A stretch of DNA of 32,000 nt from a bacterium. GTDB lineage: Bacteria; Auribacterota; Erginobacteria; Erginobacterales; DAOSXE01. The stretch is from the NCBI GenBank assembly GCA_035380285.1, contig DAOSXE010000001.1:150659-182658 (forward strand). The letters are read 5' to 3'. How positions within the stretch are numbered: position 1 is the first letter of the stretch; each line of letters begins with the position of its first letter. A model generated the notes under the pieces. It was not told the origin of the DNA. It was given only the letters and a program-made list of their open reading frames with translations, and did no database searches. Position numbers and translations under genes: made by a program. Positions 7,229-29,166 of this stretch are shown here, piece after piece.

Positions 7229-8340
7229 GCGTCTGGAATTACTTCAAATACGGCCGGCGGCTTTTCTATAAACGCAACGCTTCGCCGCTGTACCTGGTTT
7301 TTTTCGTTACCGAGCGCTGCAACGCCCGTTGCCGCCACTGTCTTCTGGGGGGAATCCATCCCGGTCGCGACGAACTTACCCTGGAAGAGATCGAGCGGGT
7401 TTCCCGCTCGATGGACGATTTTCTTTTTCTGCTCCCCACCGGGGGGGAGCCGTTTCTTCGTTCCGACCTTCCCGAGATCGTGGAGGTGTTCTACCGCAAC
7501 AACCATATCCAGAACGTAGGCATTCCCACCAACGGCGGTCTGACGGAGAAAGTGGTGGGGGCGGTGGAAGAGATCCTGCGCCGCTGTCCGGGGCTGGATT
7601 TGATGGTGGATGTCTCCATCGACGGAATCGGCCCCGATCACGACGAGATCCGCCGGGTGCCCGGGCTCTTCGAAAAAGCCATGGAGACCTTCCGGCGCCT
7701 GAAGGAGATCGACGCCGCGCACCCCCGGTTCACGGCCAGCATAGAAACCACGGTTTCTTCCTTCAACGACGATAAACTGGAAGACATGTTCCGCTATTTC
7801 ACCGAGAAAGCCGGAGCGCAATCCATATTCACGCTCCTCTGCCGGGGCAAACCCATGGAGCCGGCCGCCAAATTTTTCGACATCGAACGCTACACCCGTT
7901 ACGCCGAAGCCCTGGAAGCGGGGATGATGCGGCGACGGCTCACCGGGTACGATAAGTTCCCCTTCGCCGACCTGATCAACGCCAAACGGATCGTGCGCCA
8001 CCGCCTCATCGGCAGAATCATCCGCGAGAACAGGATGGTCCTTCCCTGCTACGCGGGGATACTGGGCGCCGCGCTCTTCGCCAACGGCGACGTGCTCCCC
8101 TGCGAGCTGCATTCGGATCTGACCATGGGAAACGTCAGGGAAGCAGGATACGATTTCAAGCGGATCTGGTTCGGCGCCGCCGCCGTCCGCGCCCGGGAAA
8201 CCATCAGGAAACAGAAGTGTTTCTGCACCTATGAGTGTTTTCTCACCCTCAACATCCTCTTCAATCCCCGCATGTATCCGCAGCTCATCAAGGAATATCT
8301 GAAGGTGAAGTGGGCGAAGCTGTTCGGGAGGCGGCAGTGA
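7225..8340 (+). CDS. Radical SAM enzyme with C-terminal SPASM/twitch-like auxiliary Cys cluster
   Basis: CxxxCxxC at ERCNARCRHC and a GGEP motif (PTGGEPFL). The C-terminus has C-x13-G-x4-C (PCYAGILGAALFANGDVLPC) followed by CFCTYEC. The start overlaps the upstream stop (ATGA). Confidence 0.8.
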   Translation: MSVWNYFKYGRRLFYKRNASPLYLVFFVTERCNARCRHCLLGGIHPGRDELTLEEIERVSRSMDDFLFLLPTGGEPFLRSDLPEIVEVFYRNNHIQNVGIPTNGGLTEKVVGAVEEILRRCPGLDLMVDVSIDGIGPDHDEIRRVPGLFEKAMETFRRLKEIDAAHPRFTASIETTVSSFNDDKLEDMFRYFTEKAGAQSIFTLLCRGKPMEPAAKFFDIERYTRYAEALEAGMMRRRLTGYDKFPFADLINAKRIVRHRLIGRIIRENRMVLPCYAGILGAALFANGDVLPCELHSDLTMGNVREAGYDFKRIWFGAAAVRARETIRKQKCFCTYECFLTLNILFNPRMYPQLIKEYLKVKWAKLFGRRQ

Positions 8341-8672
8341 GCGGACGAGCCAAACCGCCGAAGCTTCATTATGTCCGCCCCCGGCGCTGGATCAGCGTTT
8401 CGTCGCCTCGGGCGGACGATATCGGCAAAAGGCCCCAACTGACCCGAAACTACATCTTTCTGGTGGTGGGGCTGGCGATCGTCGCCGGCGCCCTGATCGG
8501 ATGGGGTATCGGGATCGGGATCAACCGGGCCGTGCACATCAACACCCGCCTGGAGCCCGTCGGCGGTGATTCAGCGAAACCCGCGTCCGGCGCTTTCAGC
8601 GCTTATTCGGAGGCGCCCGAAATCGAACTGTCCGCCGGCGAACTCTCGCCTTCGCTGAAGGCGGTGCGCTGA
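8337..8672 (+). CDS. Small single-pass membrane protein (111 aa), hypothetical
   Basis: GTG at 8337 overlaps the radical SAM stop (GTGA), with GGGAGG 5 nt upstream. The protein has a basic N-terminus and then a clear TM helix (NYIFLVVGLAIVAGALIGWGIGIGI). Third codon positions are strongly G/C, like the neighbouring genes. The last 70 nt overlap the convergent motB-like gene, which lowers confidence. Confidence 0.5.
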   Translation: MSGRAKPPKLHYVRPRRWISVSSPRADDIGKRPQLTRNYIFLVVGLAIVAGALIGWGIGIGINRAVHINTRLEPVGGDSAKPASGAFSAYSEAPEIELSAGELSPSLKAVR

Positions 8673-9430
8673 ACGATCTCGATCTCCACCCGCCGGTTCC
8701 GGGCGCGGCCTTCCGGGGTTTCGTTGGAGGCCACCGGTTTTTGGGAGCCGTAGCCGACGGCGCTGAACCGGGCCGGGTCGACCTGGTGGGAATCGATGAA
8801 ATAGCGCAGCACGGCCGCGGCCCGGGCGCTGGAAAGTTCCCAATTGGAAGGATACAGCGGCGTGTGAATGGGCGTGGAGTCGGTGTAGCCGCCGATCCGG
8901 ACCTGGTAGGGGTTGAGTTCGAAAAACGCCGCCAGCCGATCGAGCAGTTCCCGGGCCTGGGGCCGGAGAACGGCTTTGCCCGGAGAGAAGAGGAACGGGG
9001 CCAGGGGCACGATCGTCACCTTCCAGCGCGAAACCTCGACCCGAACGAACCGTTCCAGACCCTGGTCGACGACGTACTGCTTGATCTCCTCCCCGAGCTT
9101 CTGGAGTTCGTCCACCCGCTCCAGTTCCTTGAGCAGGGGCGACTCCAGTTTTTCCAGTTTGACGATCAGATCGGGGTCGGCTTCCCGGACCTCGACCAGA
9201 GGGACGTTGTCCGGGGCCTCGACATCGGCCTGGTCGGTCTGGATGAATTTCTTCCCCGCGATCCAGGCGGGGTTGATCTTGAGGGCGAGCATGGTGGCCA
9301 GGATGATGAAGAAGGTCATGAGCAGGGTGGCCATGTCCGAATAGGTGGTCATCCAATCCGGAGGCCAGGTCGCCTCCAGGTCCCCGGACCCGGTTTCCTG
9401 GGTTCCCCTGGTTCTTCGCCGCGCCGCCAT
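8603..9430 (-). CDS. motB: MotB-like stator subunit, paralog 2 (TM helix with conserved Asp plus OmpA-like peptidoglycan-binding domain)
   Basis: WPPDWMTTYSDMATLLMTFFIIL carries the MotB channel Asp in YSDM. The C-terminal OmpA-like domain reads VRIGGYTDSTP...SNWELSSARAAAVLRYF...NRRVEIEIV. Confidence 0.85.
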   Translation of the reverse strand: MAARRRTRGTQETGSGDLEATWPPDWMTTYSDMATLLMTFFIILATMLALKINPAWIAGKKFIQTDQADVEAPDNVPLVEVREADPDLIVKLEKLESPLLKELERVDELQKLGEEIKQYVVDQGLERFVRVEVSRWKVTIVPLAPFLFSPGKAVLRPQARELLDRLAAFFELNPYQVRIGGYTDSTPIHTPLYPSNWELSSARAAAVLRYFIDSHQVDPARFSAVGYGSQKPVASNETPEGRARNRRVEIEIVQRTAFSEGESSPADSSISGASE

Positions 9431-9432
9431 GG

Positions 9433-10272
9433 CTATCCCTTGTCCAGCATCTCCGAACTGATATACATGTGAAATTCGATCCGCCGGTTCCGGGCCCGGT
9501 GCTCGGGCGTGTCGTTGGGGAAACGGGGCAGGGAGTCGCCGTAGCCGCTGACCGAGATCAGGCTGGCGGGGATCCCGCCGTGCTCGATCAGATAGCGCCC
9601 GGCCGCCACCGCCCGGGCGCTGGAGAGCTCCCAGTTGCTGGGGAACCGGCGCCGGTGGCAGGGGTGGATGGGGACGGAGTCGGTGTGGCCCTCGATCCGG
9701 ATCGCGGCCCCGGTCCCCCGCAGCAGCGCGGCGATCTTATCGAGGATGGGGTAGAAAGCGGGCTGCAGCGTGTCCGATCCTTCTCGGAAAAGGATGTCGG
9801 TGGTGGTGGGGATGAGAACGACGTCCTCGGCGGTGACCTTGATTTCGATGTCCCGGGCGACGCCGGTTTGGGCCAGGGTCTCCTTGATCTCCTCGGCCTT
9901 CTCCTGGATGGGCCGGAGTTCGTCGACGGCCAACTCCTGTTGGGGGGAAATATTGCGGGCCAGATCGGCCACGCGTTTTTTGACCATCACCTGGCGGGGT
10001 TGATCTCCCTTTTTAATATCGGTCTGTTCTTCGGCGATTCCCCGGACGATCTTGCTCGATGATTCCTTGGCGATCTCGATCCATTCCTGGGGCAGCCCCA
10101 TCATGGTGTTGGCGTACCAGAGCACGAAGAAAGTGAGCAGGATCGTGGTCATATCCGAATAAGTGGTCATCCACTTCGGCGGCCACTCCCCCTCCAGCCC
10201 TCCTTCCTGAACGTCGGGCTCGATGCGGGTCCGCTCGACCAGGGGATCGCCGGCTTTCTTCTTTCTCGGCAA
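9433..10272 (-). CDS. motB: MotB-like stator subunit, paralog 1
   Basis: WPPKWMTTYSDMTTILLTFFVLW is followed by an OmpA-like domain (IRIEGHTDSVP...SNWELSSARAVAAGRYL...NRRIEFHMY). The apparent TTG start comes directly after the motA TGA, with GGGAGG 6 nt upstream. Confidence 0.85.
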   Translation of the reverse strand: MPRKKKAGDPLVERTRIEPDVQEGGLEGEWPPKWMTTYSDMTTILLTFFVLWYANTMMGLPQEWIEIAKESSSKIVRGIAEEQTDIKKGDQPRQVMVKKRVADLARNISPQQELAVDELRPIQEKAEEIKETLAQTGVARDIEIKVTAEDVVLIPTTTDILFREGSDTLQPAFYPILDKIAALLRGTGAAIRIEGHTDSVPIHPCHRRRFPSNWELSSARAVAAGRYLIEHGGIPASLISVSGYGDSLPRFPNDTPEHRARNRRIEFHMYISSEMLDKG

Positions 10273-11028
10273 TCACTGCCTCCCGGCCAGGTAGGCCTTG
10301 AGTTTCTCCCGGACGATCTGGGAATTGTCCCCCGCCTGGATGGATGCGATGCCTTCGATGATGATCTCGCGGGTGAGGGCCATGTTGGTGTTGTAGACCC
10401 GGATTTTGCCGGCGATGGGCATACAGAAAAGCCCGGCCAAAACGATTCCGTAGAAGGTGGTCATCAGGGCCACGGACATGTTGGGGGCGATGGTCTCCAC
10501 GTCGGAGAGGGTTCTCAGCAGCAGGATCAGCCCGACCAGGGTCCCGACCATCCCGAAGAGGGGGGCGTAGACCGAGATGTCGCGCCAGAGCCGTTCGTCG
10601 GTGGAGATCTTCATGTGCAGGTAGTCGGAGACGGTCTCGAGGATCCCCCGGGTGACTTCGGGGTCGGTTCCGTCCGCCACCAGGTCGACGCCGATGTCGA
10701 GCAGGGGGTAGCGGCCGTTGGTGGAGAGCTCCCGGATGGCCATGAACCCTTCCCGGCGGGCCTTGACCGCCATGTCGACGATGATCTCGATCACGGACTC
10801 CGGGCTGAGCACCCGGGTGACCAGAGTGAAACGGAAAGCCTTGAGGCCGTCCACGATCTGGCGGATGCTGAAGTTGATAAGGATGGCGGCCGAGGTACCC
10901 CCGAAGACGATCAGGACCGACGGCCAGTTGACGAAGTACCCCACCATCTCCATGCCCCCCCTGAGGAAGATGGAGAAGAAGATAACGCAGAACCCGATGA
11001 TGAAGCCGATAATGGTCGTCAGTCGCAT
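10273..11028 (-). CDS. motA: MotA/PomA-like stator channel subunit (MotA/TolQ/ExbB family)
   Basis: 251 aa with 4 TM helices. The cytoplasmic loop has AVKARREGFMAIRE, equivalent to the MotA Arg/Glu pair that faces FliG. APLFGMVGTLVGLI and TTFYGIVLAGLFCMPIAGKI contain the two conserved MotA prolines. Confidence 0.9.
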   Translation of the reverse strand: MRLTTIIGFIIGFCVIFFSIFLRGGMEMVGYFVNWPSVLIVFGGTSAAILINFSIRQIVDGLKAFRFTLVTRVLSPESVIEIIVDMAVKARREGFMAIRELSTNGRYPLLDIGVDLVADGTDPEVTRGILETVSDYLHMKISTDERLWRDISVYAPLFGMVGTLVGLILLLRTLSDVETIAPNMSVALMTTFYGIVLAGLFCMPIAGKIRVYNTNMALTREIIIEGIASIQAGDNSQIVREKLKAYLAGRQ

Positions 11029-11037
11029 GGCCTGTTC

Positions 11038-11238
11038 CTATTCCTTGGGTTGCAGCGGTGCCGCGATCGAACGCTTGTAATCCTTCACTTTCCCGACGAT
11101 TTCGTCCACGCTTTCACGGGCGATGAACTGCTCGCCGGTGGTCAGGGTGATGATCGTATCCGGCCGGCCTTCCACCCGTTCGATGAAATCGGCGTTGAGA
11201 ACCATCTCCTGCCCGTTGAGCCTGGTCACCTTTATCAT
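11038..11238 (-). CDS. flbD: FlbD-family flagellar protein
   Basis: MIKVTRLNGQEMVLNADFIERVEGRPDTIITLTTGEQFIARESVDEIVGKVKDYKRSI matches the FlbD consensus I remember (MIKLTRLNG..F.LN.DLIE.IE.TPDT.ITL..G....V.ESV.E) nearly position for position. It sits just upstream of motA, as in spirochaete/Firmicute flagellar operons. Confidence 0.85.
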   Translation of the reverse strand: MIKVTRLNGQEMVLNADFIERVEGRPDTIITLTTGEQFIARESVDEIVGKVKDYKRSIAAPLQPKE

Positions 11239-11253
11239 GAAATCCGGCCCCCG

Positions 11254-13338
11254 CTAAACCATCTCCTCCTGGAACCTGTGCACCGAAACCTGTCCCTCGC
11301 GTTCGAGCTTGCGGATGGTGGCGATGATCTCGTGCTGGGCCTCCATGGTCTTGCTGCTGAGCTGGCGGAGGATGTTCATGATCTCCTCCTGGGCTTCGTC
11401 GGCCCGCTTGCGGCTGATCGAACCCATCACTTCCAGATCCTCCTTGAGCATGGCCACCGCCCGCTCCGTCAGGCCGGCGAAAAACTTCTCCCGCACCTGC
11501 TCGGACGCCCCCCGCAGCGCCATCTTCAGGACGGTCCGGTCCACGGTCCGGAAGATATCCTCGATCACGTTCTGATCGACTTCCAGCATGGCTTCGTTGA
11601 ACGGCAGTTCCTTTCCTTCGCGCTCGATCTCGACCCGGCGCACGGTTTGGGTGTCTTCTTCGAACATTTCCCGGGCCCGGTCGGTCATGTTGCGCAGGAA
11701 CTTGGCTTTAACTTCGTCGGACGCATCGGAGAGCGAGTTGGCGATCATCTCCCGGGAGATGTTGTGGATAAGGGTTTCGATATCCTTGTCGTCCAGGGAT
11801 GAGATGTCCTCGAAGAGGAACATGCGTTTGCGGACCTCCTCGGCCAGGGTGGTATTCCGTTTCTGCATGTTCTCCAGAATGATCTTGGCCACCGCGTACC
11901 GGCTGGAACTGAGGATGTCGGCCAGAACCCGGTAGCCCATGACCGGGATATAATCTTTCAGCATCTTGATCTGTTTGAGCTTGCGTTCCAGGAAAGCCTT
12001 GATCTCCCCGGCCATGTCCTCCCCCTCGGTCAGAGAACTCATGGCCTGGGCCACCTCCAGCTGTTTTTCCTCCTCCAGCTTGCTCAGGGCATCGGCGGCG
12101 TCCTTGGGATCGACTTGGGAGAGAACCGCGGCGGCCAGTTTCGGTTCCTCGTCCATGATCAGGAGGTGGACTTCGTCGGGCGGCAGGGAGCGCAGGTACT
12201 TGAAGGGCTCGTCGAGGAGCGAGGCGTCGGGGAGCTTCTCCAGTTGCTGGGACATCAGATCTTCGATGTTGCCCAGGACCTCGACCACCTCGGCGCCGAA
12301 GCCGACTCCGGCGGCTCCCGGCGCCGCCGGTCCGGCCGCCTGCGCCGCCGGGGCCGCGGCCGCCGGTGCTCCCGTTCCGGGAGTCCCGGTGCCGGTGCCG
12401 CCGCCGGCGACCAGCTTGCGCTGTTCGTCGAGCATGTCGGAGAGAGTGTCCCGGATTTCGGAGAGCAGGGCGTCCGCTTCCTGGGGCCCGCGGGTGAGGG
12501 CGTCGCGGATCTCCCCCAGCAGCTCGTCGAAATTGGTCCCCTGGCCGCTCCGGTCGAGGGCGTCTCGGATCTCTTCCAGTATTTCTCCGTAATCCCCGCC
12601 GCCGGCGGCAGCCACCACCTGGCGGATTTCCTCCAGTTCCTGGCGCCGCCGTTTCTTCTTGTCTTCCGGGCTTTCCTCGTGCCCGCTCCCCCCCGCTTCG
12701 CCGCCCGCCCCCTGGGCCCCGCCGATGATCGCCGTTTCCGCGCGTTTCTGTTTCCGCAGGGGCAGGAATATGGCGGCGATCAGGATGAGCAGGCCCGCGA
12801 GGGCGATGAGGGCGTAGAGGACGTAGTTCTGTTGGGCCGCCGAGGGAGGAAGCGCCACTTCGGGCCACGGTTCGGGGACGACGGCGACGGTGTCGCCGCG
12901 GGCTTCGTTGATCCCGGCCCAGCGCCGGACGGCCGGTTCGATGGCTTCGATCTGTTCCTGGGGCAGGTTTTCGTCGACCTCGACGGTGATGTGGAGGCTG
13001 GAGATGGTGGGGGAGAAGTTATTGGCCGCCTGAACCAGTTTCTTTTCCTGGGCGGCGTCGACCGTCTTTACCCCGGATATCCGGGAAAGCCCCTGTATCC
13101 TCTGCAGGTTGCCGTTACCGGTGGGATCGCTGAGGGTGACGTCGATGGATACGATCGTTCTTCCCGGCCCCACCAGGGTGTCGAGTTTGGGCTGTAGGTT
13201 GGCTTGGATGGCCGCTTCGGTCTGGGCTTCGGCGCTGCTCTGGGCCACTTGGGCCGCACCGGTCCCGGCCAGGAGGAGGAAGACGGTGGCCAGGACGGCG
13301 CTCGCTCTAACCGGTCCGCGGGAGAGGCTGCCGGGCAT
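11254..13338 (-). CDS. Fusion protein: signal/TM1, FliF/YscJ-like periplasmic ring-building module, TM2, repeat and low-complexity linker, FliG middle domain, two FliG C-terminal (torque-helix) domains
   Basis: aa 11-27 form a hydrophobic N-terminal segment. aa 45-155 (LQPKLDTLVGPGRTIVSIDVTL ... ISSLHITVEVDENLPQEQIEAIEPAVRRWAGINEARGDTVAVV) follow the FliF/YscJ pattern. aa 171-193 form a TM helix followed by RKQKR. aa 385-435 (LPPDEVHLLIMDEEPKLAAAVLSQVDPKDAADALSKL) resemble the FliG_M EHPQ region. aa 505-560 (MFLFEDISSLDDKDIETLI...SDASDEVKAKFLRNMTDRAREMFEED) match FliG_C, as do aa 590-690 (VIEDIFRTVDRTVLKMALRGASEQVREKFFAGLTERAVAMLKEDLEVMGSISRKRADEAQEEI...LEREGQV). GGAGGA lies 8 nt upstream of the ATG. 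Confidence 0.8.
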   Translation of the reverse strand: MPGSLSRGPVRASAVLATVFLLLAGTGAAQVAQSSAEAQTEAAIQANLQPKLDTLVGPGRTIVSIDVTLSDPTGNGNLQRIQGLSRISGVKTVDAAQEKKLVQAANNFSPTISSLHITVEVDENLPQEQIEAIEPAVRRWAGINEARGDTVAVVPEPWPEVALPPSAAQQNYVLYALIALAGLLILIAAIFLPLRKQKRAETAIIGGAQGAGGEAGGSGHEESPEDKKKRRRQELEEIRQVVAAAGGGDYGEILEEIRDALDRSGQGTNFDELLGEIRDALTRGPQEADALLSEIRDTLSDMLDEQRKLVAGGGTGTGTPGTGAPAAAAPAAQAAGPAAPGAAGVGFGAEVVEVLGNIEDLMSQQLEKLPDASLLDEPFKYLRSLPPDEVHLLIMDEEPKLAAAVLSQVDPKDAADALSKLEEEKQLEVAQAMSSLTEGEDMAGEIKAFLERKLKQIKMLKDYIPVMGYRVLADILSSSRYAVAKIILENMQKRNTTLAEEVRKRMFLFEDISSLDDKDIETLIHNISREMIANSLSDASDEVKAKFLRNMTDRAREMFEEDTQTVRRVEIEREGKELPFNEAMLEVDQNVIEDIFRTVDRTVLKMALRGASEQVREKFFAGLTERAVAMLKEDLEVMGSISRKRADEAQEEIMNILRQLSSKTMEAQHEIIATIRKLEREGQVSVHRFQEEMV
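12424..12639 (-). repeat. In-frame degenerate tandem repeat (4 copies of an xxEIR[DQ]x[LV] helix motif) inside the FliF/FliG-fusion gene
   Basis: The protein shows ELEEIRQVV / ILEEIRDALDRSG / LLGEIRDALTRGP / LLSEIRDTLSDML. On the + strand the units appear as GAGGGCGTCGCGGATCTCCCCCAGCAG, GAGGGCGTCTCGGATCTCTTCCAG and similar. A Gly/Thr/Pro/Ala low-complexity linker follows (aa 311-347, nt 12298-12408). Confidence 0.8.
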
Positions 13339-13342
13339 GGTC

Positions 13343-14119
13343 TTAATCCTCCGTAGGTTCGGTTCCGGCCGATCCGGCCGGTTCCGGGACCGCGGCGGGC
13401 CCCCCCACCGTCTCCAGCCCGGCGTAGCGGGGGACGATCAGCACCATTCCCGGGTAGATCAGGTCCGGTTCGAAGATCTGGTCGCGATTGGCGTGGTAGA
13501 GAAGGAGCCAACGGTAGGGGTTGCCGTAAACTTCCGGCTTGCCCGCGATGGTCCAGAGGCACTCGCCCTCGCCGACCAGGTAGGTGTCCATGCCCAGAAG
13601 CTGCGCGGAAACCGGTTCGCCCGCGGCGGTTACCGTGATCCGCGGACCGGTCTCGGAACCGCTCGCCTCGGCCTCGCTGAGCTGCAGCTCCGCCTGGCGG
13701 CGCTTGATTTCTTCGTCTTCGGCCTTGATCGTCAATTCCTCGACCTGGTTTCTCAAGGCCTCGACTTCTTTTTTCAGGGCGTCGGCGGCGGCTTGTTCGT
13801 CCCGCAGGGCCTGGAGAAGCTCTTCCTCGCTGGGGGCGGGAGACTCCGCGGTTCTTCGAGACCCGGCTTCGGGGTAGTAGCGTTCGAGGTCGCGCATCCG
13901 GGGGTTGCGGAAGATGAACCCCTCGTTGCCCCAGAGGACGTCGTCGGGTCCCCCGATGGTCAGCGGCCGGGGGCTGAACGGGTAGTCCATGGGGCGGAAG
14001 GTGCGGCCGCCCGGTTTCCAGACGCTCTCCAGGTCGTAACGGTCCGCGATTTCGGCCGTGTCCGCAAGGAGGTTTCCCGCCGCCCCCGCGGCCAGAATGA
14101 AGATGAACAGTCGCTTCAT
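13343..14119 (-). CDS. Secreted coiled-coil protein with C-terminal LysM peptidoglycan-binding domain
   Basis: Signal peptide MKRLFIFILAAGAAGNLLA. The central heptad-rich segment is EEELLQALRDEQAAADALKKEVEALRNQVEELTIKAEDEEIKRRQAELQL. The LysM-like C-terminus is YLVGEGECLWTIAGKPEVYGNPYRWLLLYHANRDQIFEPDLIYPGMVLIVP. I prefer the ATG at 14119 over the TTG at 14122, because AAGGAG lies 6 nt upstream of the ATG. Confidence 0.75.
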   Translation of the reverse strand: MKRLFIFILAAGAAGNLLADTAEIADRYDLESVWKPGGRTFRPMDYPFSPRPLTIGGPDDVLWGNEGFIFRNPRMRDLERYYPEAGSRRTAESPAPSEEELLQALRDEQAAADALKKEVEALRNQVEELTIKAEDEEIKRRQAELQLSEAEASGSETGPRITVTAAGEPVSAQLLGMDTYLVGEGECLWTIAGKPEVYGNPYRWLLLYHANRDQIFEPDLIYPGMVLIVPRYAGLETVGGPAAVPEPAGSAGTEPTED

Positions 14120-14156
14120 CAAGGGCTCCTTAGATTGAAGTAATTGCTGAAATCAA

Positions 14157-14186
14157 TTTATAGCAACTGCCGCTTTGAATTGTCAA
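14157..14186 (-). promoter_or_regulatory. Putative sigma70-type promoter of the LysM-FliF/G-FlbD-MotAB operon
   Basis: On the minus strand: TTGACA (14186-14181), an 18-nt spacer, then TATAAA (14162-14157). It lies about 35 nt upstream of the AAGGAG RBS, in the only AT-rich gap of this region. Confidence 0.4.
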
Positions 14187-14283: not shown

Positions 14284-15315
14284 ATGGAAAGAAAAAGGCT
14301 GGCAAATCGCCTGCTCACCGGGATTTGGATTTTCCTGTTCCTCCTGGTGGTGGGACTTTTTTTGGGGAGCCGGTTGACGGAGGTGAAGGGGTGGCTGCGG
14401 GGTTTGGTCCGCGAGCCGCAAGCCGTCATGAACTCCTTCCAGCCCCGTTCGATGGCGGGTTTCCGATGTTCCTTCGAGCAGCCCGGGGATACCGGGATCT
14501 GGGTCACCCACCAGACGGCGCTGGCGGTGACCGACCTGGATCTGCCCGGCGCCCGGCACTGGGCCCGGGTCACGTATTACCCCGGCACCGCTCCGGGGCT
14601 TCTCTGGACCGACGAATCCATGGGCGTGATGGATTGGCGGGGGGTGAAGGCGTTGGAATTCGACGCTTATAACCCCAACGGGTGGCCCGTGGATTTGAAG
14701 ATTAAAATCAAGGACCAGTCCGGGAACTCCTTCCAAAGAGCCCAGAAACTGGCGCCGGGCCGAACTACTTCGATATCAGTACCGCTGTCGGCTGCATCCG
14801 GCCAACTCAACCTGGGGCGAGTCAGCTATCTGAATCTTTTCTTGTGGGGCCCGGGAAGCGAAACGGTTCTCTTCTTTTCCAATTTCAGCCTCCCCGGGGT
14901 CGGCGAGACCCCACCGGCTTCGAACCGGCAGCCGGGGCTTAAATTTCTTGGGTTGGAATTTCCCCGGATTCTCCGCCGGGGGGAGATAGTTGAGGCTTCT
15001 TTCTTCTTCATGCCGGAGGCGGCGTTGCCGGAGGGCTGCCTGCTCTTGGTCCGTCTCAAGAATCGAGCCGGCATCACTCCCTTGGGCGAGGTTTCCCCGC
15101 CGCTGCCCACCTCGGCCTGGGCGCCGGGGCGGATGGCCCGGGTCGGTCCGTTCCCCCTGGAAATCCCGATGACCGCCTCCCCCGGCTTGTACGAACTGGA
15201 AGCGGTCATGGCCCGTCCCTTGGGGGAGAGCGGGGAAGGGGGGGTTGTTTTTCTGCCCTACGCCAACGCCGACCTGCCCGGGCATTCGGTGGCCGAGGTG
15301 GAAGTGATCGAGTGA
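14284..15315 (+). CDS. Membrane-anchored hypothetical protein, architecture TM-X-Y (X = CBM/galactose-binding-like domain, Y = Ig-like repeat domain shared with the next gene)
   Basis: N-terminal TM helix LLTGIWIFLFLLVVGLFLG. Domain X contains DWRGVKALEFDAYNP...DLKIKIKDQSGNSF...LFFSNFSL. Domain Y contains RRGEIVEASFFFMPEAALPEG...PTSAWAPGRMARVGPFPLEIPMTASPGLYELEAV. I recognise no catalytic motif. Confidence 0.6.
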   Translation: MERKRLANRLLTGIWIFLFLLVVGLFLGSRLTEVKGWLRGLVREPQAVMNSFQPRSMAGFRCSFEQPGDTGIWVTHQTALAVTDLDLPGARHWARVTYYPGTAPGLLWTDESMGVMDWRGVKALEFDAYNPNGWPVDLKIKIKDQSGNSFQRAQKLAPGRTTSISVPLSAASGQLNLGRVSYLNLFLWGPGSETVLFFSNFSLPGVGETPPASNRQPGLKFLGLEFPRILRRGEIVEASFFFMPEAALPEGCLLLVRLKNRAGITPLGEVSPPLPTSAWAPGRMARVGPFPLEIPMTASPGLYELEAVMARPLGESGEGGVVFLPYANADLPGHSVAEVEVIE

Positions 15316-15359
15316 GATTTCGAAACGACAAGCAGCGACTGTAACCGGAGAAAGTGGAG

Positions 15360-16823
15360 ATGCATAAAAAATTGATGGGTTTAGCGATCTTCCTGGTATT
15401 GACTGGGATGGGTAGGAGCGAAACCGTGCTCAGGGAAGGCCCCGCCCGGCTGAAATTCATCAGTTTTTCCCTGCAGACCGAGATTCCCCAGGGGACGTTC
15501 GTCAAGGCCAGCGCTTTTTTCCAGCTTACGGCTCCGGTCGACGGCGACGAGAAGGTGTTTTTCCATCTGGCTCCGGCCGGCCAGAAAAACCCGGTTCTCA
15601 ACGCCGATTTCTATCCCAAATATCCCACTTCGCTTTGGGCGGTGGGCCAGACGGTGGAAGCCGGCCCGATCGGCCTGACCGTTCCCGGCACGATCGCCCC
15701 CGGAGAGTACGATCTCAGGACCGGGTTGATGGAGATCGACCGCACCGGGCAGGAAACCCGGTATATCCGGGAAAAGTTCACCAATCCCGAGATCAAGGAT
15801 TTCACGGTGGGTCGGGTGCGGGTGGTTCCTCCGGCCGACGGAGCCGGGGGAGGGCCGGGGGAAGGGGAGCAGGCTCCCGTCGCCGACCTGGACATAGTCA
15901 GTTTCGAGAAAGACAACGACGTCCTCCTCTGGCAACCGGTGGGGGCGCGGGTCGAGCGCTACGACCTCGACGAGCTCCCGGTGGCCGCGGTCGCCATCGT
16001 CCCCGATCCGTCGGTCCCTTATCCGGGGGTGGAGTTGAACAATTTTTTCCAGATATTCCCCCAATATGCCGACTGGTCGCTGTACGACGCTCTCCAGGTA
16101 GGTTTGTCGGTCCCCGGCCAATCTCCCCTGCGCAGGTTGTTCATACAGATCAGCGACGCTCAAGGACGGATGTATAAAAAGGAAGTCCGGTTGAAACCGG
16201 GGGAGTCGGCTCAGGAACTGCTGGATATGGTGACGCTGGGGGGGGTAATCAATATCTCCCGGATAGCGCGGGTGAAAATCTTTTCGGTCGCCCTCGACCG
16301 GGAAGCCACCTTTTACGTCACCGGGTTGCGGCTGCTGGCGCGGGGGATGCCGACCAGCGAGCCCACGGTCGAGTTCGTGCGCCTGGAATGCCCGGCCAGC
16401 GTCAAGCGGGGGGAAGTCTTCTTCGTCAAGGTGTTCTTTTCCCTGAAGGCTCCGGTCTTCGCCCCCTGCAAGCTGTTCGTCCATATCTACCGGGAAAACG
16501 ACCTCCAGGGAGCGGTGAACGGGGACAACAATCTGGTGGTCCCGGTACGGCAGTGGCCGCTGAAGCAGGAAGTGGGCGCGTTGTCGTCGCCGGTGATGAT
16601 CCGCCCCGACGCCCCTCCCGGGCGATATCTGGTCCGGGCCGGTCTCTATACCCCCATCCAAAGCGACGGGGTCGGGTATATCAAGACCGCGACCTGGGAC
16701 GACGGCCGGGGGCAGGAGGTCGTCAACATCGAGCAGCCGGTGGTCGGGGAAGATTATATCAAGCAGCCCTATACCGATCCCAAGATCGAGGATTGGGTGG
16801 TGGGCTCGATCCAGGTCGAATAA
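15360..16823 (+). CDS. Secreted hypothetical protein, architecture SP-Y-X-Y (paralogous to the previous gene)
   Basis: Signal peptide MHKKLMGLAIFLVLTGMG. The two Y copies end in a near-identical tail: FTNPEIKDFTVGRVRVV and YTDPKIEDWVVGSIQVE. The central X domain (ADWSLYDALQVGLS...LFIQISDAQGRMY...FYVTGLRLL) parallels domain X of the upstream protein. I prefer the ATG at 15360 over the GTG at 15354, because GGAG lies 9 nt upstream of the ATG. Confidence 0.6.
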   Translation: MHKKLMGLAIFLVLTGMGRSETVLREGPARLKFISFSLQTEIPQGTFVKASAFFQLTAPVDGDEKVFFHLAPAGQKNPVLNADFYPKYPTSLWAVGQTVEAGPIGLTVPGTIAPGEYDLRTGLMEIDRTGQETRYIREKFTNPEIKDFTVGRVRVVPPADGAGGGPGEGEQAPVADLDIVSFEKDNDVLLWQPVGARVERYDLDELPVAAVAIVPDPSVPYPGVELNNFFQIFPQYADWSLYDALQVGLSVPGQSPLRRLFIQISDAQGRMYKKEVRLKPGESAQELLDMVTLGGVINISRIARVKIFSVALDREATFYVTGLRLLARGMPTSEPTVEFVRLECPASVKRGEVFFVKVFFSLKAPVFAPCKLFVHIYRENDLQGAVNGDNNLVVPVRQWPLKQEVGALSSPVMIRPDAPPGRYLVRAGLYTPIQSDGVGYIKTATWDDGRGQEVVNIEQPVVGEDYIKQPYTDPKIEDWVVGSIQVE

Positions 16824-16850: not shown

Positions 16851-17702
16851 ATGAGCAGAGTCCGCAGCAGGTTGGCCGTCCTGGGCGTGGTCGGTCTGGC
16901 CGGCCTATGCGCCGTGGCCGGTTTTCTTTTGTTCGACGCCCTGGTCGTCGAACCCAACTGGATCACCGTGCGGCGCGTGCGCATCGAAAACCCGGACCTG
17001 GCCGCCGCCCTGGAGGGGGTCCGGGTCGCCCAGATCTCCGACCTCCACCTGCGGGGGAGCTTGGGGTTCCGGGAACGGTCCCTGATCGCCCGCTTGAACC
17101 GGTTGCGCCCCGATCTGATCCTCATTACCGGAGATCTGGTCGAAGGACCGGGGCAGGGCCGCTTGGCCGTGGAATTCATCCGCCAACTCAAGCCCGGGCT
17201 CTGGTCCTACGGAGTTCTGGGTAACGCCGACCGCAACGCCTTTTCCGTATCCCAGCGGAATGCCCTGCGCCGGGCCGGCCTGGAGATGATCGGGGAAAGG
17301 GCGTTGCGGATGCAGCCGGGAGCGGCTCCGGCCGAATTTTATCTGGCCGGGATCGATTTCCCCGGCTACGGGCAACCGGTGCCCGCCGACCGGATCCGGG
17401 AAATCGTCTCCGGGGTGCCTCCGGGAAAACCCATAATTTTTCTGGCTTATTCCCCCGACGCGGCGGAAGCGCTGGCGGATGAAGGCGTGGACCTGGTGCT
17501 TTCCGGGGATTCCCACGGCGGGCAGGTCGGCCTTCCCGGTTGGGGGAGTCTGTTCGAGGAGTTCGGGAGGTCGCGGTTCGTCCGGGGTCTCTACCGGTTG
17601 AAAAACACCGTTCTCTACGTCAATCGGGGGATCGCCACCAAGACGGTGCCGATCCGCTTTCTCTGCCCCCCCGAAATCACCCTCTTCGAGTTTACCCGAT
17701 GA
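16851..17702 (+). CDS. Membrane-anchored calcineurin-like metallophosphoesterase (YaeI/YkuE-like) with substituted active-site histidines
   Basis: N-terminal TM helix, then motifs ISDLHL, ITGDLV, LGNADRN (where GNHD is expected), LAYSPD (where H-N-P-D is expected) and SGDSHGGQ (where GHTHGGQ is expected). Confidence 0.7.
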   Translation: MSRVRSRLAVLGVVGLAGLCAVAGFLLFDALVVEPNWITVRRVRIENPDLAAALEGVRVAQISDLHLRGSLGFRERSLIARLNRLRPDLILITGDLVEGPGQGRLAVEFIRQLKPGLWSYGVLGNADRNAFSVSQRNALRRAGLEMIGERALRMQPGAAPAEFYLAGIDFPGYGQPVPADRIREIVSGVPPGKPIIFLAYSPDAAEALADEGVDLVLSGDSHGGQVGLPGWGSLFEEFGRSRFVRGLYRLKNTVLYVNRGIATKTVPIRFLCPPEITLFEFTR

Positions 17703-18553
17703 AAGCCGTTCTTGTCGGGCCGCGGAAATTGCTGGGATGGATCGCCCCTTTCCTGCCCCTGCTGGTACTGGCGTGGCCGGCCTGGCGGGCGCTGACCTGG
17801 ATGAACCGCCGGTTCTTCGAACAGGAATCCTACTACTCTCACGGCTGGCTGATTCCGGCCGCCATCGCCTGGCTCATCTATCTGCGCCGCTCCCGGATCG
17901 CCGCCGTGGGCCGGCAGGCCTCTTTTTTCGGGGCCTTCGCGTATGGGTTGGGGGTGTCGATCGCGGCCTCGGGCATCGTCATCGATATCCGATTTCTCGT
18001 CGCCTGGGGGCTGGTTCTGGCCGGGATCGGGTGGTACTGGTCGTGGGCAGGTGCCGCCCGGGCCCGGATCGCCCTTCCTCCTCTCCTCCTGCTCCTGGGC
18101 ATGATCCCCCTCCCCGGAGTCTGGCTGTTGGCGTTGACCGCTCACCTCAAATCCTTAGCCGCCGCCGGGGGGGTTGTCGTCGCCGGATTGTTGGGGGTGC
18201 AAGCGGTGTTGGATGGTTCCACCGTGATCGTCGCCGGTGCCCCTCCCGGGCCGAGCCTGGTGATCGGCGACCCCTGCAGCGGGCTGCGCTCGCTCTTGGT
18301 TTTTGCCTCCCTGGGCTTGTTTTTCGCTCTTCAGGAAGAATCCGGACCGCTGCGCAAGGTTCTCCTGGCGGGGCTGGCGTTGTCGATGGCGCCGCTCAGC
18401 AATCTTCTGCGGGTGGTGTTTCTGATAGTGGTCCGCCGGGTGATCGGGCCGGTGGCTCTCGAAGGTCCGATCCATCTCCTGGCCGGCGCCGGGGCTTTCG
18501 GGTTCTGCTTTTTTCTCTATCTGCTTGCGGTCGGGAGATGGTTCCGCCGATGA
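17699..18553 (+). CDS. Exosortase (Xrt family transpeptidase), compact 284-aa form
   Basis: ATG at 17699 overlaps the upstream stop (ATGA). The protein has YYSHGWLIPAAIAWLIY, the catalytic-Cys motif DPCSGLRSLL, the Arg motif SNLLRVV and the His motif IHLLAGAG, spread over about 8 TM helices. The tracked ORF start at 17540 is an out-of-context extension. Confidence 0.8.
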   Translation: MKAVLVGPRKLLGWIAPFLPLLVLAWPAWRALTWMNRRFFEQESYYSHGWLIPAAIAWLIYLRRSRIAAVGRQASFFGAFAYGLGVSIAASGIVIDIRFLVAWGLVLAGIGWYWSWAGAARARIALPPLLLLLGMIPLPGVWLLALTAHLKSLAAAGGVVVAGLLGVQAVLDGSTVIVAGAPPGPSLVIGDPCSGLRSLLVFASLGLFFALQEESGPLRKVLLAGLALSMAPLSNLLRVVFLIVVRRVIGPVALEGPIHLLAGAGAFGFCFFLYLLAVGRWFRR

Positions 18554-19197
18554 AAAAACGGGGTGTGATCGTCGTCGTCGAAACCGTTGCGGCCGTTTTG
18601 ATCCTGGGGTTGGCGGCGACGATTTCGAACCGGCGTCACGAGCCGGGCTCGTATCCGGTCATCGATCTCGAGAAGATTCCGCTGGAAATCTCCGGCTGGA
18701 AGGGAAAGCGCGTTTCCCTGGGGCCCGACCATCCCGCCCGGGTCGGAGGAGTCGCCGCGGTGTATATCAGCTATCTCAAGGGGGACAGACATCTCGATCT
18801 CTACGTGGTGGAGGGCGCCCCCGGGACGTTTTCGCTCCACCCTCCCGAATATTGCCTGATCGGCGGGGCCAGCGACGAGACCGCGCGGTCGCGGATCGGC
18901 GTTCCTTACGGGGAGGGGAAGGAGATCGAGGTCAACCGCTTCGAGGCCGAAAGGATGCGGCGCCGGAGCCTGGTGTATTACTGGTACGCGGACGGTAACG
19001 GTTTTACTCCGGATTATCTTCTTCCCCAGGTGGCCAACCTGGCGAAGCGCCTGGCGGGGCGAGAGCGAGCCTTCTGCCTGGTCCGGCTTTCCTGGGACGG
19101 CGACGACGGGCTCGACTACGCGGAAGAATCCTTCCGGCTCTTTATCCGGGAAGCGCTGCCCGCGATCGCTCCGATCTTCTCCGGCGGCGGGAAATGA
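18550..19197 (+). CDS. epsI: EpsI-family exosortase-associated protein
   Basis: N-terminal TM helix (VIVVVETVAAVLILGLA), then IPLEISGWKGKRVSLGPD...YISYLKGDRHLDLYVV...YYWY, typical of EpsI/DUF3485 partners of exosortases. The start ATG at 18550 overlaps the exosortase stop; an ATG at 18538 is also possible. Confidence 0.7.
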   Translation: MKKRGVIVVVETVAAVLILGLAATISNRRHEPGSYPVIDLEKIPLEISGWKGKRVSLGPDHPARVGGVAAVYISYLKGDRHLDLYVVEGAPGTFSLHPPEYCLIGGASDETARSRIGVPYGEGKEIEVNRFEAERMRRRSLVYYWYADGNGFTPDYLLPQVANLAKRLAGRERAFCLVRLSWDGDDGLDYAEESFRLFIREALPAIAPIFSGGGK

Positions 19198-19206
19198 CCG
19201 TCGGGC

Positions 19207-20619
19207 TTACCTCGAGCCGCTGCCGCGGAGCACGACCGAGACGGTGCGGAAAATGATAAGAAAATCCAGAGCGGGCGACATGTTCTCGATGTAGAAGATG
19301 TCGTAGAGCAGCTTCTGGCGGTGTTCCTCCGGGGTGGACGCGTAGCCGTGGACGATTTGCGCCCACCCGGTCAGGCCCGGTTTTACCGCCAGCCGCTCGG
19401 CGTAAAAGGGGATCTCTTCCATCAGCTGCCGGATGAATACGGGCCTTTCCGGCCTCGGCCCCACCAGGCTCATATCGTTGATCAGGACATTGTAAAGCTG
19501 CGGAAGCTCGTCGAGCCGAAACCGCCGCAGGAAGCCGCCGAACCGGGTGATGCGGGGATCGTCGTCGGCGGCGAAGGCGGCCCCCGCTGCTTCGCTCCCC
19601 GGGATCATGGTTCGGAACTTATAGAGAGTGAATATCTTCCCATGCAGGCCGGCCCGGACCTGCCGGTAGATCACCGGCCCCGGGGAGGTCAGTTTGATCA
19701 GGACGGCGGCGCCCAGCATGAAGGGAAAAGAGACGATCAGGCCGGCCACGGCCCCGAAGGTGTCGATCAACCGTTTGAGGTCGGGGTACCAGGCCACTTT
19801 CTGATGGGCGGTGGGGCTGATGAGGGGGATGTCCTCGGTCGGACTTCCGGCCATGGTGCCGATGGTGGCCTCGTAGAGACCGGGAACGATCCGGAAGATC
19901 ACGTCGGTTCCGGAGAATTCGTTGATGACCGCCAGGATCTCCTGCCGGGTAATGAGGGGCGAGGCGATGACGACTTCGTCGATGGCCTTCTCCTTGACCA
20001 GGGCGGAAATATCGGATATCCCTCCCAACACCTGTCCGGCGATCGCGGGATCGCTGCGGGCCGAGGAGGGGTTGATGAAACCCACCAGCTTCCGGGTGAT
20101 GGCCGCTTCCCTCACCAGGCGGGTGGCGATCCGTTGCGCTTCGCGGCAGGTTCCGATGATCAGCACCTGGGAGACGAAATAGTTTTTTTTAAGTATCCAG
20201 TTGATGATCCGCTTGGTCGCCAGCCTCCAGAAAACGATCAGGGGAATGGTCAGCGCCCAGGAGATGAGGATCACGGAACGCGGGTAGGCGAAAGACCGGG
20301 CCATGAAAGCGACGACGATGATGATGCCCGTGCTGACGGTGGTGGCCTTGACGGTGCTGAGGACGATGTCGTACGTCGATTTGTATTTGGGCTTGTTGTA
20401 GAGCCCGTAGATGTAGAAACACAGGAGTCTCAGGACGATGATGGGGAGGACCAGGCCCAGCCACGCGATCCGGTTGACCCGCGGGAGCGGACCGTATTCG
20501 AAGCCGAAGCGGATGAAAAAGGCGGCCAGATCGGCGGAGAAGATCAAGCAGGCGTCGACCAGGAGCGAGATCGAGACCAGGAAAGTTTTCGAAGGGAAGC
20601 GCCGCTTGTCAGCCATCAA
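19207..20619 (-). CDS. Polyprenyl-phosphate glycosyl-1-phosphate transferase (WbaP/EpsB-type priming sugar transferase)
   Basis: 470 aa with 4-5 N-terminal TM helices and a central Rossmann-like segment (VLIIGTCREAQRIA). The C-terminal bacterial sugar transferase domain reads KRLIDTFGAVAGLI...PGPVIYRQVRAGLHGKIFTLYKFRTM...DPRITRFGGFLRRFRLDELPQLYNVLINDMSLVGPRPERP. Confidence 0.9.
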   Translation of the reverse strand: MMADKRRFPSKTFLVSISLLVDACLIFSADLAAFFIRFGFEYGPLPRVNRIAWLGLVLPIIVLRLLCFYIYGLYNKPKYKSTYDIVLSTVKATTVSTGIIIVVAFMARSFAYPRSVILISWALTIPLIVFWRLATKRIINWILKKNYFVSQVLIIGTCREAQRIATRLVREAAITRKLVGFINPSSARSDPAIAGQVLGGISDISALVKEKAIDEVVIASPLITRQEILAVINEFSGTDVIFRIVPGLYEATIGTMAGSPTEDIPLISPTAHQKVAWYPDLKRLIDTFGAVAGLIVSFPFMLGAAVLIKLTSPGPVIYRQVRAGLHGKIFTLYKFRTMIPGSEAAGAAFAADDDPRITRFGGFLRRFRLDELPQLYNVLINDMSLVGPRPERPVFIRQLMEEIPFYAERLAVKPGLTGWAQIVHGYASTPEEHRQKLLYDIFYIENMSPALDFLIIFRTVSVVLRGSGSR

Positions 20620-27846: not shown

Positions 27847-29166
27847 ATGATCAAGAGAATCATCGTCGGGGAATCGGGAGGACCGACGCCGGTAATCGAT
27901 TGGGAAATCTCGGGGGTGATGGACGCCGCCCAGAAAGCCGGGGTGGAAATTTACGGCATGATCAACGGTCTGGAAGGTCTTCTCAACGCCGATATCGAGG
28001 GGAATATCGTCGACCTCACGCACCTCGACCACATGGCTTTCGCTTTCAACGGGCCGGGAGCGGGGTTGAGAACGACCAGGATCAAACCCGACGAGGAGCA
28101 GTACCGGCATATCGCGCGCAACCTGGAGGCGCTGGGAATCGACGGAGTCGTGTATATCGGGGGTAACGACAGCGCCGCCCAGCTCCTGGGGCTCACCGCT
28201 CTGGCCGATGTCGCCGCCGTCCACGCCATCAAGACCGTGGACAACGATCTGCCGGTGACGCACCACAGTCCGGGTTACGGTTCCGCGGCTCTCTACAACG
28301 CCACCGCCCTGAAGAACGTCTATAACGATTTTTCTTCCTACCGGGTCTGGGGGCATTTCCGCCGGTCCGGCGAAGTGATCAAATCCCTGAGCACCGCTCC
28401 GGTGGTGATCTACCAGGTGATGGGCCGGAAGGCCGGTTGGCTGGCTCAGTCCACCGCCTTTGCCAAGGTGGACCCCAAGGGGGACATCGTCGACGAGTAT
28501 GCTCCCCATATCGTTCTCAGCAAGGAGGTCCTCTTCGACCCCGACGAATTTCTGGACGCTCTGAGCCGGGTCATAACCCGGCTGGGAGAAGCCGTGGTCG
28601 TGGTCCAGGAAGATCTGACCGACAAGGCGACCGGAGAGGCGTTGGCCAAGATCCACGCCCGGGAAGTGGTGACGGACGCGCACGGCAATATTCAGCACGG
28701 TCGCGCCGGCTCCTTCGTCCCTTCCATCTTTCTGGCCCAGTTGATCAAGCGGAATCTGCGGGTGGAGGCGGTTTCGGGGGAGATCAAGGAAGCCGCCCTG
28801 GCGCCCCAGCATATTCAGCGAAGTTACGTCATGTCCCGGCAGGATGCGTCCGAAGCCTACATGGTCGGGTTTTCGGCGGTGGAAGCGCTGCTCTCGGGGG
28901 AAAACCTCAAGTCGGTGATCCTGCAGCGGGGCGATTGCCGGACCTCGACCGGCCTCACCGATCTGGAGAATATCGCCGCCAAGGACCGCTCCGTTCCCCT
29001 CGAATACATCAACGGCCTTTACGGCCCCACCCAGGAGTTCATCGACGAGTTCATCTACCTGATCGGCGGACCGGTGGGCATTCCCCATTATTCGTCCCAT
29101 TCTTTCTGCCCGGTTCCGGTCCCCTCCGAAATCGGGTCACGGCCCTATGTAAGGGAAGGCCGATGA
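27847..29166 (+). CDS. Phosphofructokinase-family protein, PPi-dependent type by signature residues
   Basis: The PFK motifs are GESGGPTPVI, YIGGNDSA, IKTVDNDL and VMGRKAGWLA. Asp is at the position where ATP-PFKs have Gly (GGDGS), and Lys sits before TVDND. Both are recalled as PPi-type signatures. Confidence 0.7.
   Translation: MIKRIIVGESGGPTPVIDWEISGVMDAAQKAGVEIYGMINGLEGLLNADIEGNIVDLTHLDHMAFAFNGPGAGLRTTRIKPDEEQYRHIARNLEALGIDGVVYIGGNDSAAQLLGLTALADVAAVHAIKTVDNDLPVTHHSPGYGSAALYNATALKNVYNDFSSYRVWGHFRRSGEVIKSLSTAPVVIYQVMGRKAGWLAQSTAFAKVDPKGDIVDEYAPHIVLSKEVLFDPDEFLDALSRVITRLGEAVVVVQEDLTDKATGEALAKIHAREVVTDAHGNIQHGRAGSFVPSIFLAQLIKRNLRVEAVSGEIKEAALAPQHIQRSYVMSRQDASEAYMVGFSAVEALLSGENLKSVILQRGDCRTSTGLTDLENIAAKDRSVPLEYINGLYGPTQEFIDEFIYLIGGPVGIPHYSSHSFCPVPVPSEIGSRPYVREGR

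Follow-up and report, generated by a model that had tools for sequence, protein, structure and literature searches.

In the bacterial flagellar motor, the third ring-building motif (RBM3) of FliF forms the S-ring, MotA pushes on the C-terminal domain of FliG (FliG_C) and MotB anchors the stator to the peptidoglycan. To our knowledge, every FliG characterised so far works inside a flagellum, and we know of no non-flagellar 5:2 motor (Agl, Gld, Tol, Exb or Zor) that uses FliG. The subject of this study is a stretch of 32,000 nucleotides from an Auribacterota contig (DAOSXE010000001.1, assembly GCA_035380285.1), referred to throughout as the window, in which six adjacent minus-strand genes encode a LysM-like protein, a natural fusion of FliF-like and FliG-like parts, FlbD, one MotA and two MotB proteins. 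An earlier note, made from the letters of the window alone, had read this operon as a minimal rotary module put to non-flagellar work. Our analysis leads to a similar reading, to which we give a probability of about one half: the operon would encode a stand-alone, flagellum-derived, ion-driven rotor-stator machine, non-flagellar and coupled to biogenesis of the envelope or its polysaccharide. There is a substantial chance that this flagellar-type motor core without a flagellum is a functionally new machine.

Much of the module is like the flagellar motor core. The RBM3 fold and topology of FliF, the FliG middle domain (FliG_M), ARM_C, the MFXF hinge and the R...ED torque helix are present, as are a PomA/MotP-type MotA with its prolines, MotB with the channel Asp and OmpA anchor, the SwrD residues of FlbD and the gene order flbD-motA-motB. 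Unlike the flagellar core, however, the module has no export apparatus, rod, hook, filament, FliM/N or FliL nearby and lies in an exopolysaccharide (EPS)/exosortase context. Its FliF consists of RBM3 only and is fused to FliG, FliG_N is missing and FliG_C is partly duplicated, EEPK stands for EHPQ, a MotA Glu is replaced by Arg/Lys, and there are two MotBs per MotA.

A MotAB-like unit also energises an envelope process in AglRQS (Glt/Nfs), GldLM, TolQR, ExbBD and ZorAB, but those units are TolQ/ExbB-like or of the GldL/ZorA kind, whereas the stator described here is of the flagellar clade and its partner is FliG on a FliF-like ring. Nfs/AglQS handles spore-coat polysaccharide, and the nearest functional analogy would be this AglRQS/Nfs machinery, which spreads the spore-coat polysaccharide in Myxococcus. 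FliF-FliG fusions are otherwise known only as laboratory constructs. The engineered fusions of Salmonella and Vibrio (PDB 8Z4D/8Z4G; PMC11481574) likewise form one covalent chain and assemble into rings, so a FliF-FliG fusion is compatible with ring formation. They join full-length FliF to FliG (945 aa), whereas the protein of the window is natural and without RBM1/2, collar or FliG_N, and a PDB profile of its family matched only the FliG part of 8Z4D.

Uzun et al. noted motAB, flbD and fliG in Elusimicrobiota without flagellar structural genes and called their role unclear (bioRxiv 10.1101/2022.07.08.499144). The list of KEGG functions is the same, and flagellar structural genes are absent there too, but the paper gives no fusion architecture, operon or EPS linkage; these sets may or may not belong to the family described here. 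This passing remark was the sole mention returned by a literature search, which yielded no description of the six-gene system, in line with the earlier note, which knew of none, and no paper linking FliG with exosortase or PEP-CTERM systems.

The six minus-strand open reading frames (ORFs), placed from 8603 upward with gaps of 0-15 nt in the earlier note, are confirmed; they span 8603-14122 and the intergenic gaps are 4, 15, 9, 0 and 2 nt. An AAGGAG ribosome-binding site lies at 14126-14131, ahead of the start codon of the LysM gene. The promoter-like TTGACA-N18-TATAAA (14157-14186, minus strand) can be read directly in the 161-nt divergent intergenic region, and the string proposed is therefore present; it is not listed by a sigma-70 consensus scan, since TATAAA is without the final T, and we treat it as a putative promoter match upstream of the operon. 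Pfam and NCBIfam scans of the 32-kb window found no flagellar gene besides the operon, in agreement with the claim that nothing else there is flagellar. Profile searches also bear out the proposed families FliG_M, FliG_C, YscJ_FliF, FlbD, MotA_ExbB, MotB_plug and OmpA, the FliF-like module being backed by fold as well.

The rotor protein (11254-13338, minus strand, 694 aa) was assigned from Pfam, NCBIfam, a PDB profile, AlphaFold2 (AF2), Foldseek and homologues. It consists, in order, of a transmembrane (TM) helix, a FliF RBM3-like periplasmic domain, a second TM helix, a linker, FliG_M and the partly duplicated FliG_C. The periplasmic domain (12871-13236; aa 35-156), recognised by Pfam and fold comparison, is flanked by TM1 (aa 7-27) and TM2 (aa 167-199), as placed by hydropathy and AF2 helices. 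Its predicted fold is alpha-beta, an insert of ~40 aa, then beta-alpha-beta, which is the ring-building motif. The N-terminus matches YscJ_FliF_C (PF08345) at 6e-6, with 27-30 bits against a gathering cutoff of 23.8, and a PF08345 match is found in 6 of 12 family members. When the AF2 model of the isolated domain (predicted local distance difference test score, pLDDT, 72) was compared with the PDB by Foldseek, the top 17 matches were all FliF RBM3/S-ring (E 9e-6 to 6e-4, probability 1.0), and PrgK and SpoIIIAG ranked far behind; the full-length model retrieved FliG first, then FliF RBM3. A sequence-only PDB profile search with the N-terminal alignment returned nothing meaningful, and the homology of this domain to FliF is drawn from PF08345 and the fold comparison.

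The two TM helices and RBM3 of a FliF are thus found, and RBM1, RBM2 and the beta-collar are not: Pfam gives no PF01514 match in the fusion, and the periplasmic region is only ~130 aa long, with the ~40-aa low-confidence insert where the beta-collar would sit. The FliF-like ring module of the earlier note holds for an RBM3-like domain and was overstated beyond it. RGDT (aa 147-150) is invariant among close homologues, and G148 and D149 across the wider family. By tblastn, the N-terminal region is linked to canonical fliF next to fliG in Solirubrobacterales loci (L046 8972-11612; L048, L050, L056 and others; handles of this form denote individual loci), which is independent sequence-level support for a FliF-derived N-terminus; RGDT is also visible near the end of the periplasmic region of the L046 FliF. 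These matches, which extend over query aa 52/112-660, were considered as natural FliF-FliG fusions and rejected, as L046 has separate, adjacent fliF and fliG. The cytoplasmic linker (12214-12741; aa 200-375, ~175 residues) combines low-complexity Gly/Ala/Pro stretches with three conserved helices of the form 'LxEIRDxL' (ILEEIRDAL 253-261, LLGEIRDAL 273-281 and LLSEIRDTL 291-299), between which the AF2 model has low pLDDT.

In the FliG part, Pfam places FliG_C (PF01706) at 4e-40 in two stretches and FliG_M (PF14841) at 8e-11, and a profile built from 28 homologues finds Thermotoga maritima FliG_MC in the PDB at 1e-36, in two pieces. The middle domain with ARM_C (11803-12213; aa 376-512) was delimited by residue-level alignment to T. 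maritima FliG: residues 382-530 align to FliG_M, ARM_C and the MFXF hinge, kept here as MFLF (aa 506-509), and residues 590-666 to the six-helix torque domain. The intervening 60 residues are a second, partial copy of the torque domain (self-BLASTP 31% over 52 aa, E 3e-8). The stretch 11257-11802 thus holds two FliG_C torque-helix units in tandem, copy 1 at aa 513-577 and copy 2 at aa 578-694. The torque helix of copy 1, NMTDRAREMFEED (aa 550-562), carries R554...E561 D562, and that of copy 2, LTERAVAMLKED (aa 623-634), carries R626...E633 D634, so each subunit has two R...ED torque helices; R626, E633 and D634 are invariant across the family, the most distant relatives included. The FliM-binding EHPQ motif is replaced by EEPK (aa 397-400) in every close homologue aligned. 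There is no PF14842 match for FliG_N, and the alignment to TIGR00207 starts only at model position 97 and scores 172.6 bits, below the 226.7 equivalog cutoff. The FliG rotor first proposed is therefore sound for FliG_M, FliG_C and the hinge, and does not extend to FliG_N, EHPQ or an equivalog score.

The MotA/PomA-type stator A subunit (10273-11028, minus strand, 251 aa) was recognised by NCBIfam and PDB matches. It matches Pfam MotA_ExbB (PF01618) at 1e-21 and, in NCBIfam, PomA at 1e-55 and MotP at 9e-55, the PomA/MotP/MotA range being 1e-55 to 1e-28 and TolQ reaching 0.003. With PomA/MotP/MotA so far ahead of TolQ, the stator belongs to the flagellar clade, its NCBIfam scores being below the equivalog cutoffs (188 vs 341). 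Over its whole length the protein can be aligned with the structures of Paenibacillus MotA1, Vibrio PomA and Clostridium/Bacillus MotA at ~1e-41, both channel prolines being matched, in 'YAPLFG' and 'CMPIAG'. The four TM helices, MotA_ExbB, prolines and flagellar-stator relatives are those of a MotA/PomA protein; the loop pair of Arg and Glu is not complete. In seven family members this loop reads K-A-R-(R/K)-E-G-F-x-(A/S)-(I/L)-(R/K)-(D/E/G), with the Arg (R91) invariant in 7/7 aligned. Thr residues align with PomA T158/T185/T186, which we take to be Na+ ligands; they serve only as a lead for the ion type of this MotA.

Both MotB proteins match MotB_plug (PF13677) and OmpA (PF00691) and have the features of MotB/PomB. 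MotB-I (9433-10272, minus strand, 279 aa) has a TM helix with the channel Asp (WMTTYSDM) and an OmpA-like peptidoglycan-binding domain, and matches PDB PomB at 9e-24; MotB-II (8603-9430, minus strand, 275 aa) shows the same features by Pfam, NCBIfam and alignment. The two fall into separate orthologous groups older than the spread of the family, and D40 and WPPxW are invariant in both. One motA together with two always-paired motB genes suggests a MotB-I/MotB-II heterodimer.

The LysM-like protein (13343-14122, ATG at 14119, minus strand, 258/259 aa) has a single N-terminal hydrophobic segment, which is a signal-like helix, followed by a coiled-coil region and a C-terminal LysM domain. The evidence for the LysM assignment of the earlier note consists of weak NCBIfam matches over aa 107-232, with weak Pfam LysM matches on the orthologues in the distant loci L010 and L011 only. 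A LysM-like gene is recognisable upstream of the fusion in every probed locus extending that far except the rearranged L095, where a 172-aa ORF, outside the LysM comparison, lies upstream.

FlbD (11038-11238, minus strand, 66 aa) matches PF06289 with 93.8 bits (cutoff 24.7; 5e-27) and carries every residue listed as conserved in SwrD (R6, N15, I19, E23, P26, D27 and T28); it is a SwrD orthologue. The list is that of Nair et al. (PMC13232269), who found hexameric SwrD rings and, in silico, a SwrD-MotA interaction that they could not bear out biochemically.

The fusion is a real protein. It is found, identical, on 9 contigs of independent NCBI, JGI and ENA assemblies, e.g. the 242-kb CAYVZY010000001.1 (GCA_964456375.1), and it has 27 full-length homologues of 686-710 aa at 49-70% identity, from metagenome-assembled genomes (MAGs) named Candidatus Auribacterota, Ca. 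Erginobacter occultus or 'PVC group'. An assembly or frameshift artefact is therefore rejected. In an exhaustive HMMER search of 1.84 billion representatives, only 11 proteins scored E<1e-30, about 10 of them distant clusters of 560-667 aa, and below these came ordinary FliGs of ~330-335 aa from many phyla at ~1e-29. The distant members share the fusion architecture, some with one FliG_C unit and others with two. One genome from each of 185,579 species was scanned in a pattern-limited way, which yielded 13 members, full-length or partial, and a profile search with the distant alignment found no further taxa. By label, loci L015-L022 are Auribacterota or PVC group, L023 and L081 Omnitrophota, and L024-L026 TPA MAGs of Planctomycetia.

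The six genes keep their order in L006, L008-L011, L015-L017, L019-L021, L023 and L026, with partial views in L012, L022, L024 and L025, over protein identities of 26-70%; among loci with room for the whole set, nearly all retain it in this order. Members at 30-37% identity still have the complete operon with its order unchanged (L010, L011, L023 and L026; partially seen in L012, L024 and L025), while L095 and L081 contain the same parts rearranged, with the two motB genes inverted. All six ORFs are intact in every fully covered locus (~16), and a pairwise comparison of two Auribacterota loci gives dN/dS values of 0.14-0.33 across the six genes. All six genes are thus under purifying selection, and the module is a selected unit.

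The most distant member, P0038 (L013 499-2181, JGI 3300010356), has 560 aa and a single FliG_C unit. A LysM-like gene lies upstream, and a hybrid histidine kinase and response regulator follow it instead of FlbD, MotA and MotB. FliG proteins of ~900-1000 aa were considered as full FliF-FliG fusions and set aside: the one checked, P0111, is a FliN::FliG fusion instead. A 979-aa FliN(FliMN_C)::FliG_N/M/C fusion stands in L096 (8001-10940; CAYQPH010000013.1, GCA_964419435.1) beside fliM and a FapA gene, among two GGDEF genes and large TPR and WD40 proteins, with no other flagellar gene in 19 kb, and may be a different 'orphan switch complex'.

The genes around the operon are conserved too. Four Auribacterota lineages, at ~50% identity, are collinear with the window over ~22 kb. 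On one side, with the six-gene operon divergent, are the priming transferase, EpsI, EpsH, (a deacetylase), the phosphoesterase and the unknowns of ~490 and ~340 aa; on the other are GT4 glycosyltransferases, a deacetylase, a hexapeptide transferase, a GFO oxidoreductase and a Wzx-type flippase. Related genomes thus retain both the six genes and their linkage to EPS genes at 26-70% protein identity, which upholds the proposal that the neighbourhood is conserved. The linkage to exosortase stands for the Auribacterota loci and fails in the distant ones, where two secreted proteins are the constant partners.

These two proteins are a 343-aa protein (14284-15315, plus strand) with one N-terminal TM helix, divergent from the operon, and a 489-aa secreted protein (15354-16823, plus strand), the most constant operon neighbour, probably with three beta-rich domains. 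They are paralogues that share 23-28% identity, each has a TM helix or signal sequence at its N-terminus, and neither has a relative by Pfam, NCBIfam, PDB sequence search or homologue names. The 489-aa protein is co-distributed with the fusion across homologues, and the 343-aa gene is linked to the module in the Auribacterota loci, L012, L023, L025 and L095. The pair adjoins the operon even where it has moved to the other side (L011, L023, L025 and L095). As the most faithful neighbours of the operon, the two proteins are candidates for the output element of the motor.

Next to them in the window is a membrane-anchored calcineurin-like phosphoesterase (16851-17702, plus strand), assigned by Pfam Metallophos and resembling LpxG (NCBIfam 2e-31) and YaeI (4e-23), both below cutoff. 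Its gene is present in most family loci and, with that of the priming transferase, usually stays in the distant ones; the priming transferase is linked in L006, L008-L011 and L026. The distant loci have, instead of exosortase, Wza/Wzc/Wzy (L011), Wzy with a histidine kinase and a response regulator-GGDEF protein (L010) or GH123 (L012 and L095). The GH123 glycoside hydrolase gene lies directly beside the unknown pair and motor genes (L012 871-3201, L095 7771-9882).

A working model would be as follows. The fusion would oligomerise through RBM3 into an inner-membrane ring, as FliF does, and display its FliG torque helices in the cytoplasm. Wall-anchored MotA5:MotB2 units, perhaps with MotB-I/MotB-II heterodimers, would drive this ring, with the LysM protein as a further wall-bound scaffold and FlbD as a stator accessory. 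Ion flow would turn MotA against the FliG_C helices, and the ring would turn or transmit torque. A ring without RBM1/2, export gate, rod or FliM/FliN would do its work in the envelope itself. As there is no room for an export gate or rod, and the genes are linked to EPS genes and those of two secreted proteins, we infer that the torque would serve surface-layer work: the motor may power or gate the building of a surface layer of polysaccharide or protein, its export or its movement. A more specific version is tentative and rather doubtful: a flagellar-type motor stripped of secretion and axial parts would spin its inner-membrane ring and, by way of the two secreted proteins, export an EPS or PEP-CTERM layer, spool it or move it over the surface.

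The best-surviving alternative is a non-rotating signalling or gating device, in which the FliG ring and stator would sense ion flux or mechanical cues and so regulate EPS synthesis, with no work done on a substrate. Known parallels are the surface sensing and c-di-GMP signalling that depend on stators in Pseudomonas and Vibrio, and the Bacillus subtilis EpsE-FliG clutch. FliG is a textbook docking site for EPS-linked regulators (the EpsE clutch, YcgR), the kinase and GGDEF genes of L010 adjoin the operon, and P0038 has a hybrid kinase and a response regulator as neighbours and no stator genes next to it; the altered MotA charge could also mean that torque is not the selected function. Yet signalling genes are absent from most loci, and the channel Asp, prolines, plug/TM, two peptidoglycan anchors and R...ED helices, all under purifying selection, exceed what a sensor would seem to need. 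We regard such a device as unlikely.

Markedly less probable is that the operon serves ordinary motility in a flagellated organism, with the remaining flagellar genes elsewhere in its genome and the fusion as its only FliF/FliG or a second, accessory rotor. It is true that motAB is often separate from other flagellar genes, that flbD-motA-motB is the textbook order of spirochaete and Firmicute flagellar operons, and that flagella are reported to be encoded by one of the Auribacterota MAGs, Ca. Auribacter fodinae (PMC9324843). However, the fusion lacks RBM1/2, the collar and FliG_N, with which an MS ring accommodates the export gate and rod and binds FliF, and EHPQ has become EEPK. No flagellar gene is present among called genes within 10 kb of the family loci examined. 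According to Williams et al. (Environ Microbiol 2022), moreover, no Ace Lake Auribacterota MAG (88-100% complete) encodes flagella, and Ca. Erginobacter occultus, one of these MAGs (PMC9324843), carries the full six-gene module, so that the module does occur in a genome reported without flagella, as had been proposed.

A decaying remnant of a lost flagellum without present function, for which the persistence of partial flagellar gene sets in non-motile lineages such as Lysobacter (PMC9927559) would be a precedent, is effectively refuted by the conservation data: the six ORFs are intact in ~16 fully covered loci across 26-70% identity, dN/dS is 0.14-0.33, and the innovations of the family (duplicated FliG_C, EEPK, the MotA Arg/Lys and two MotB orthologous groups) are themselves conserved.

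Several points weigh against the stand-alone rotor-stator machine. The first concerns MotA. The earlier claim that contact residues are preserved is correct for the MotA Arg, the prolines, the MotB Asp and the R...ED of FliG_C, but the position of PomA E96 (which we take to be E. coli E98, with PomA R88 corresponding to E. coli R90) is Arg in the MotA of the window (aa 99) and Arg/Lys in 7/7 aligned; the following residue (aa 100) is acidic in 6/7 and Gly in L008. The classical electrostatic pairing is thereby altered and might not work likewise, although the change may be matched by the unusual double torque helix. Secondly, the full-length AF2 model of the fusion is only moderate (pLDDT 60), and ring formation, stator binding and rotation, like the output of the complex, are what we infer. 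Thirdly, exosortase was found in the Auribacterota loci only and not in the distant loci, a crude C-terminal regular expression found no PEP-CTERM substrate within the window, and the EPS linkage could in part be phylogenetic inertia within one superphylum. Finally, the absence of flagella is taken from the statement of one paper on a relative, not from the genome of the window itself.

A conserved and selected FliG-MotAB pair without a flagellum would show that the torque core can exist, and be useful, alone, which has a direct bearing on how motor and secretion system were first combined in the flagellum. If the proposed machine is real, the FliG-stator torque interface would for the first time be seen at work outside a flagellum, and models of flagellar origin would gain a living 'motor without a flagellum'. 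In little-known anaerobic phyla, which abound in digesters and sediments, it could also supply energy for the assembly of polysaccharide or of the cell surface. The natural FliF(RBM3)::FliG fusion would offer a compact, possibly self-assembling rotor; with two torque helices per subunit and a stator of one MotA and two MotBs, it is attractive for structural and single-molecule work.

Elsewhere in the window, the exosortase/PEP-CTERM EPS system comprises EpsH, EpsI and the priming transferase. Exosortase EpsH (17699-18553, plus strand) matches Pfam Exosortase_EpsH (PF09721) at 8e-35, EpsI (18550-19197, plus strand) matches TIGR02914 above cutoff, and the EPS priming polyprenyl glycosylphosphotransferase (19207-20619, minus strand) matches TIGR03025 with 416 bits, above cutoff, and Pfam Bac_transf. 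A 486-aa ORF at 17737-19197 (plus strand) is the EpsI frame extended upstream; the arrangement is really EpsH plus EpsI with a 4-nt overlap. On the other side of the operon, a 111-aa ORF with one TM helix (8337-8672, plus strand) follows a radical-SAM gene and overlaps the 3' end of the convergent motB-II by ~70 nt. Opposite-strand ORFs of 93-117 aa are called at the matching position in L006, L008, L009, L010 and L011; by tblastn these small ORFs share no sequence similarity, so their conservation is positional only. The other large ORFs of the window encode GT4 and GT2 glycosyltransferases, a deacetylase, a radical-SAM/SPASM enzyme, rml (dTDP-sugar) proteins, a peptidase and two phosphofructokinase (PFK)-family proteins, all of them of sugar or EPS metabolism or of housekeeping kind. 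The two PFK genes (27847-29166 and 30241-31551, plus strand) are in keeping with the ATP-dependent and PPi-dependent PFKs that are both reported for Auribacterota (PMC9324843).

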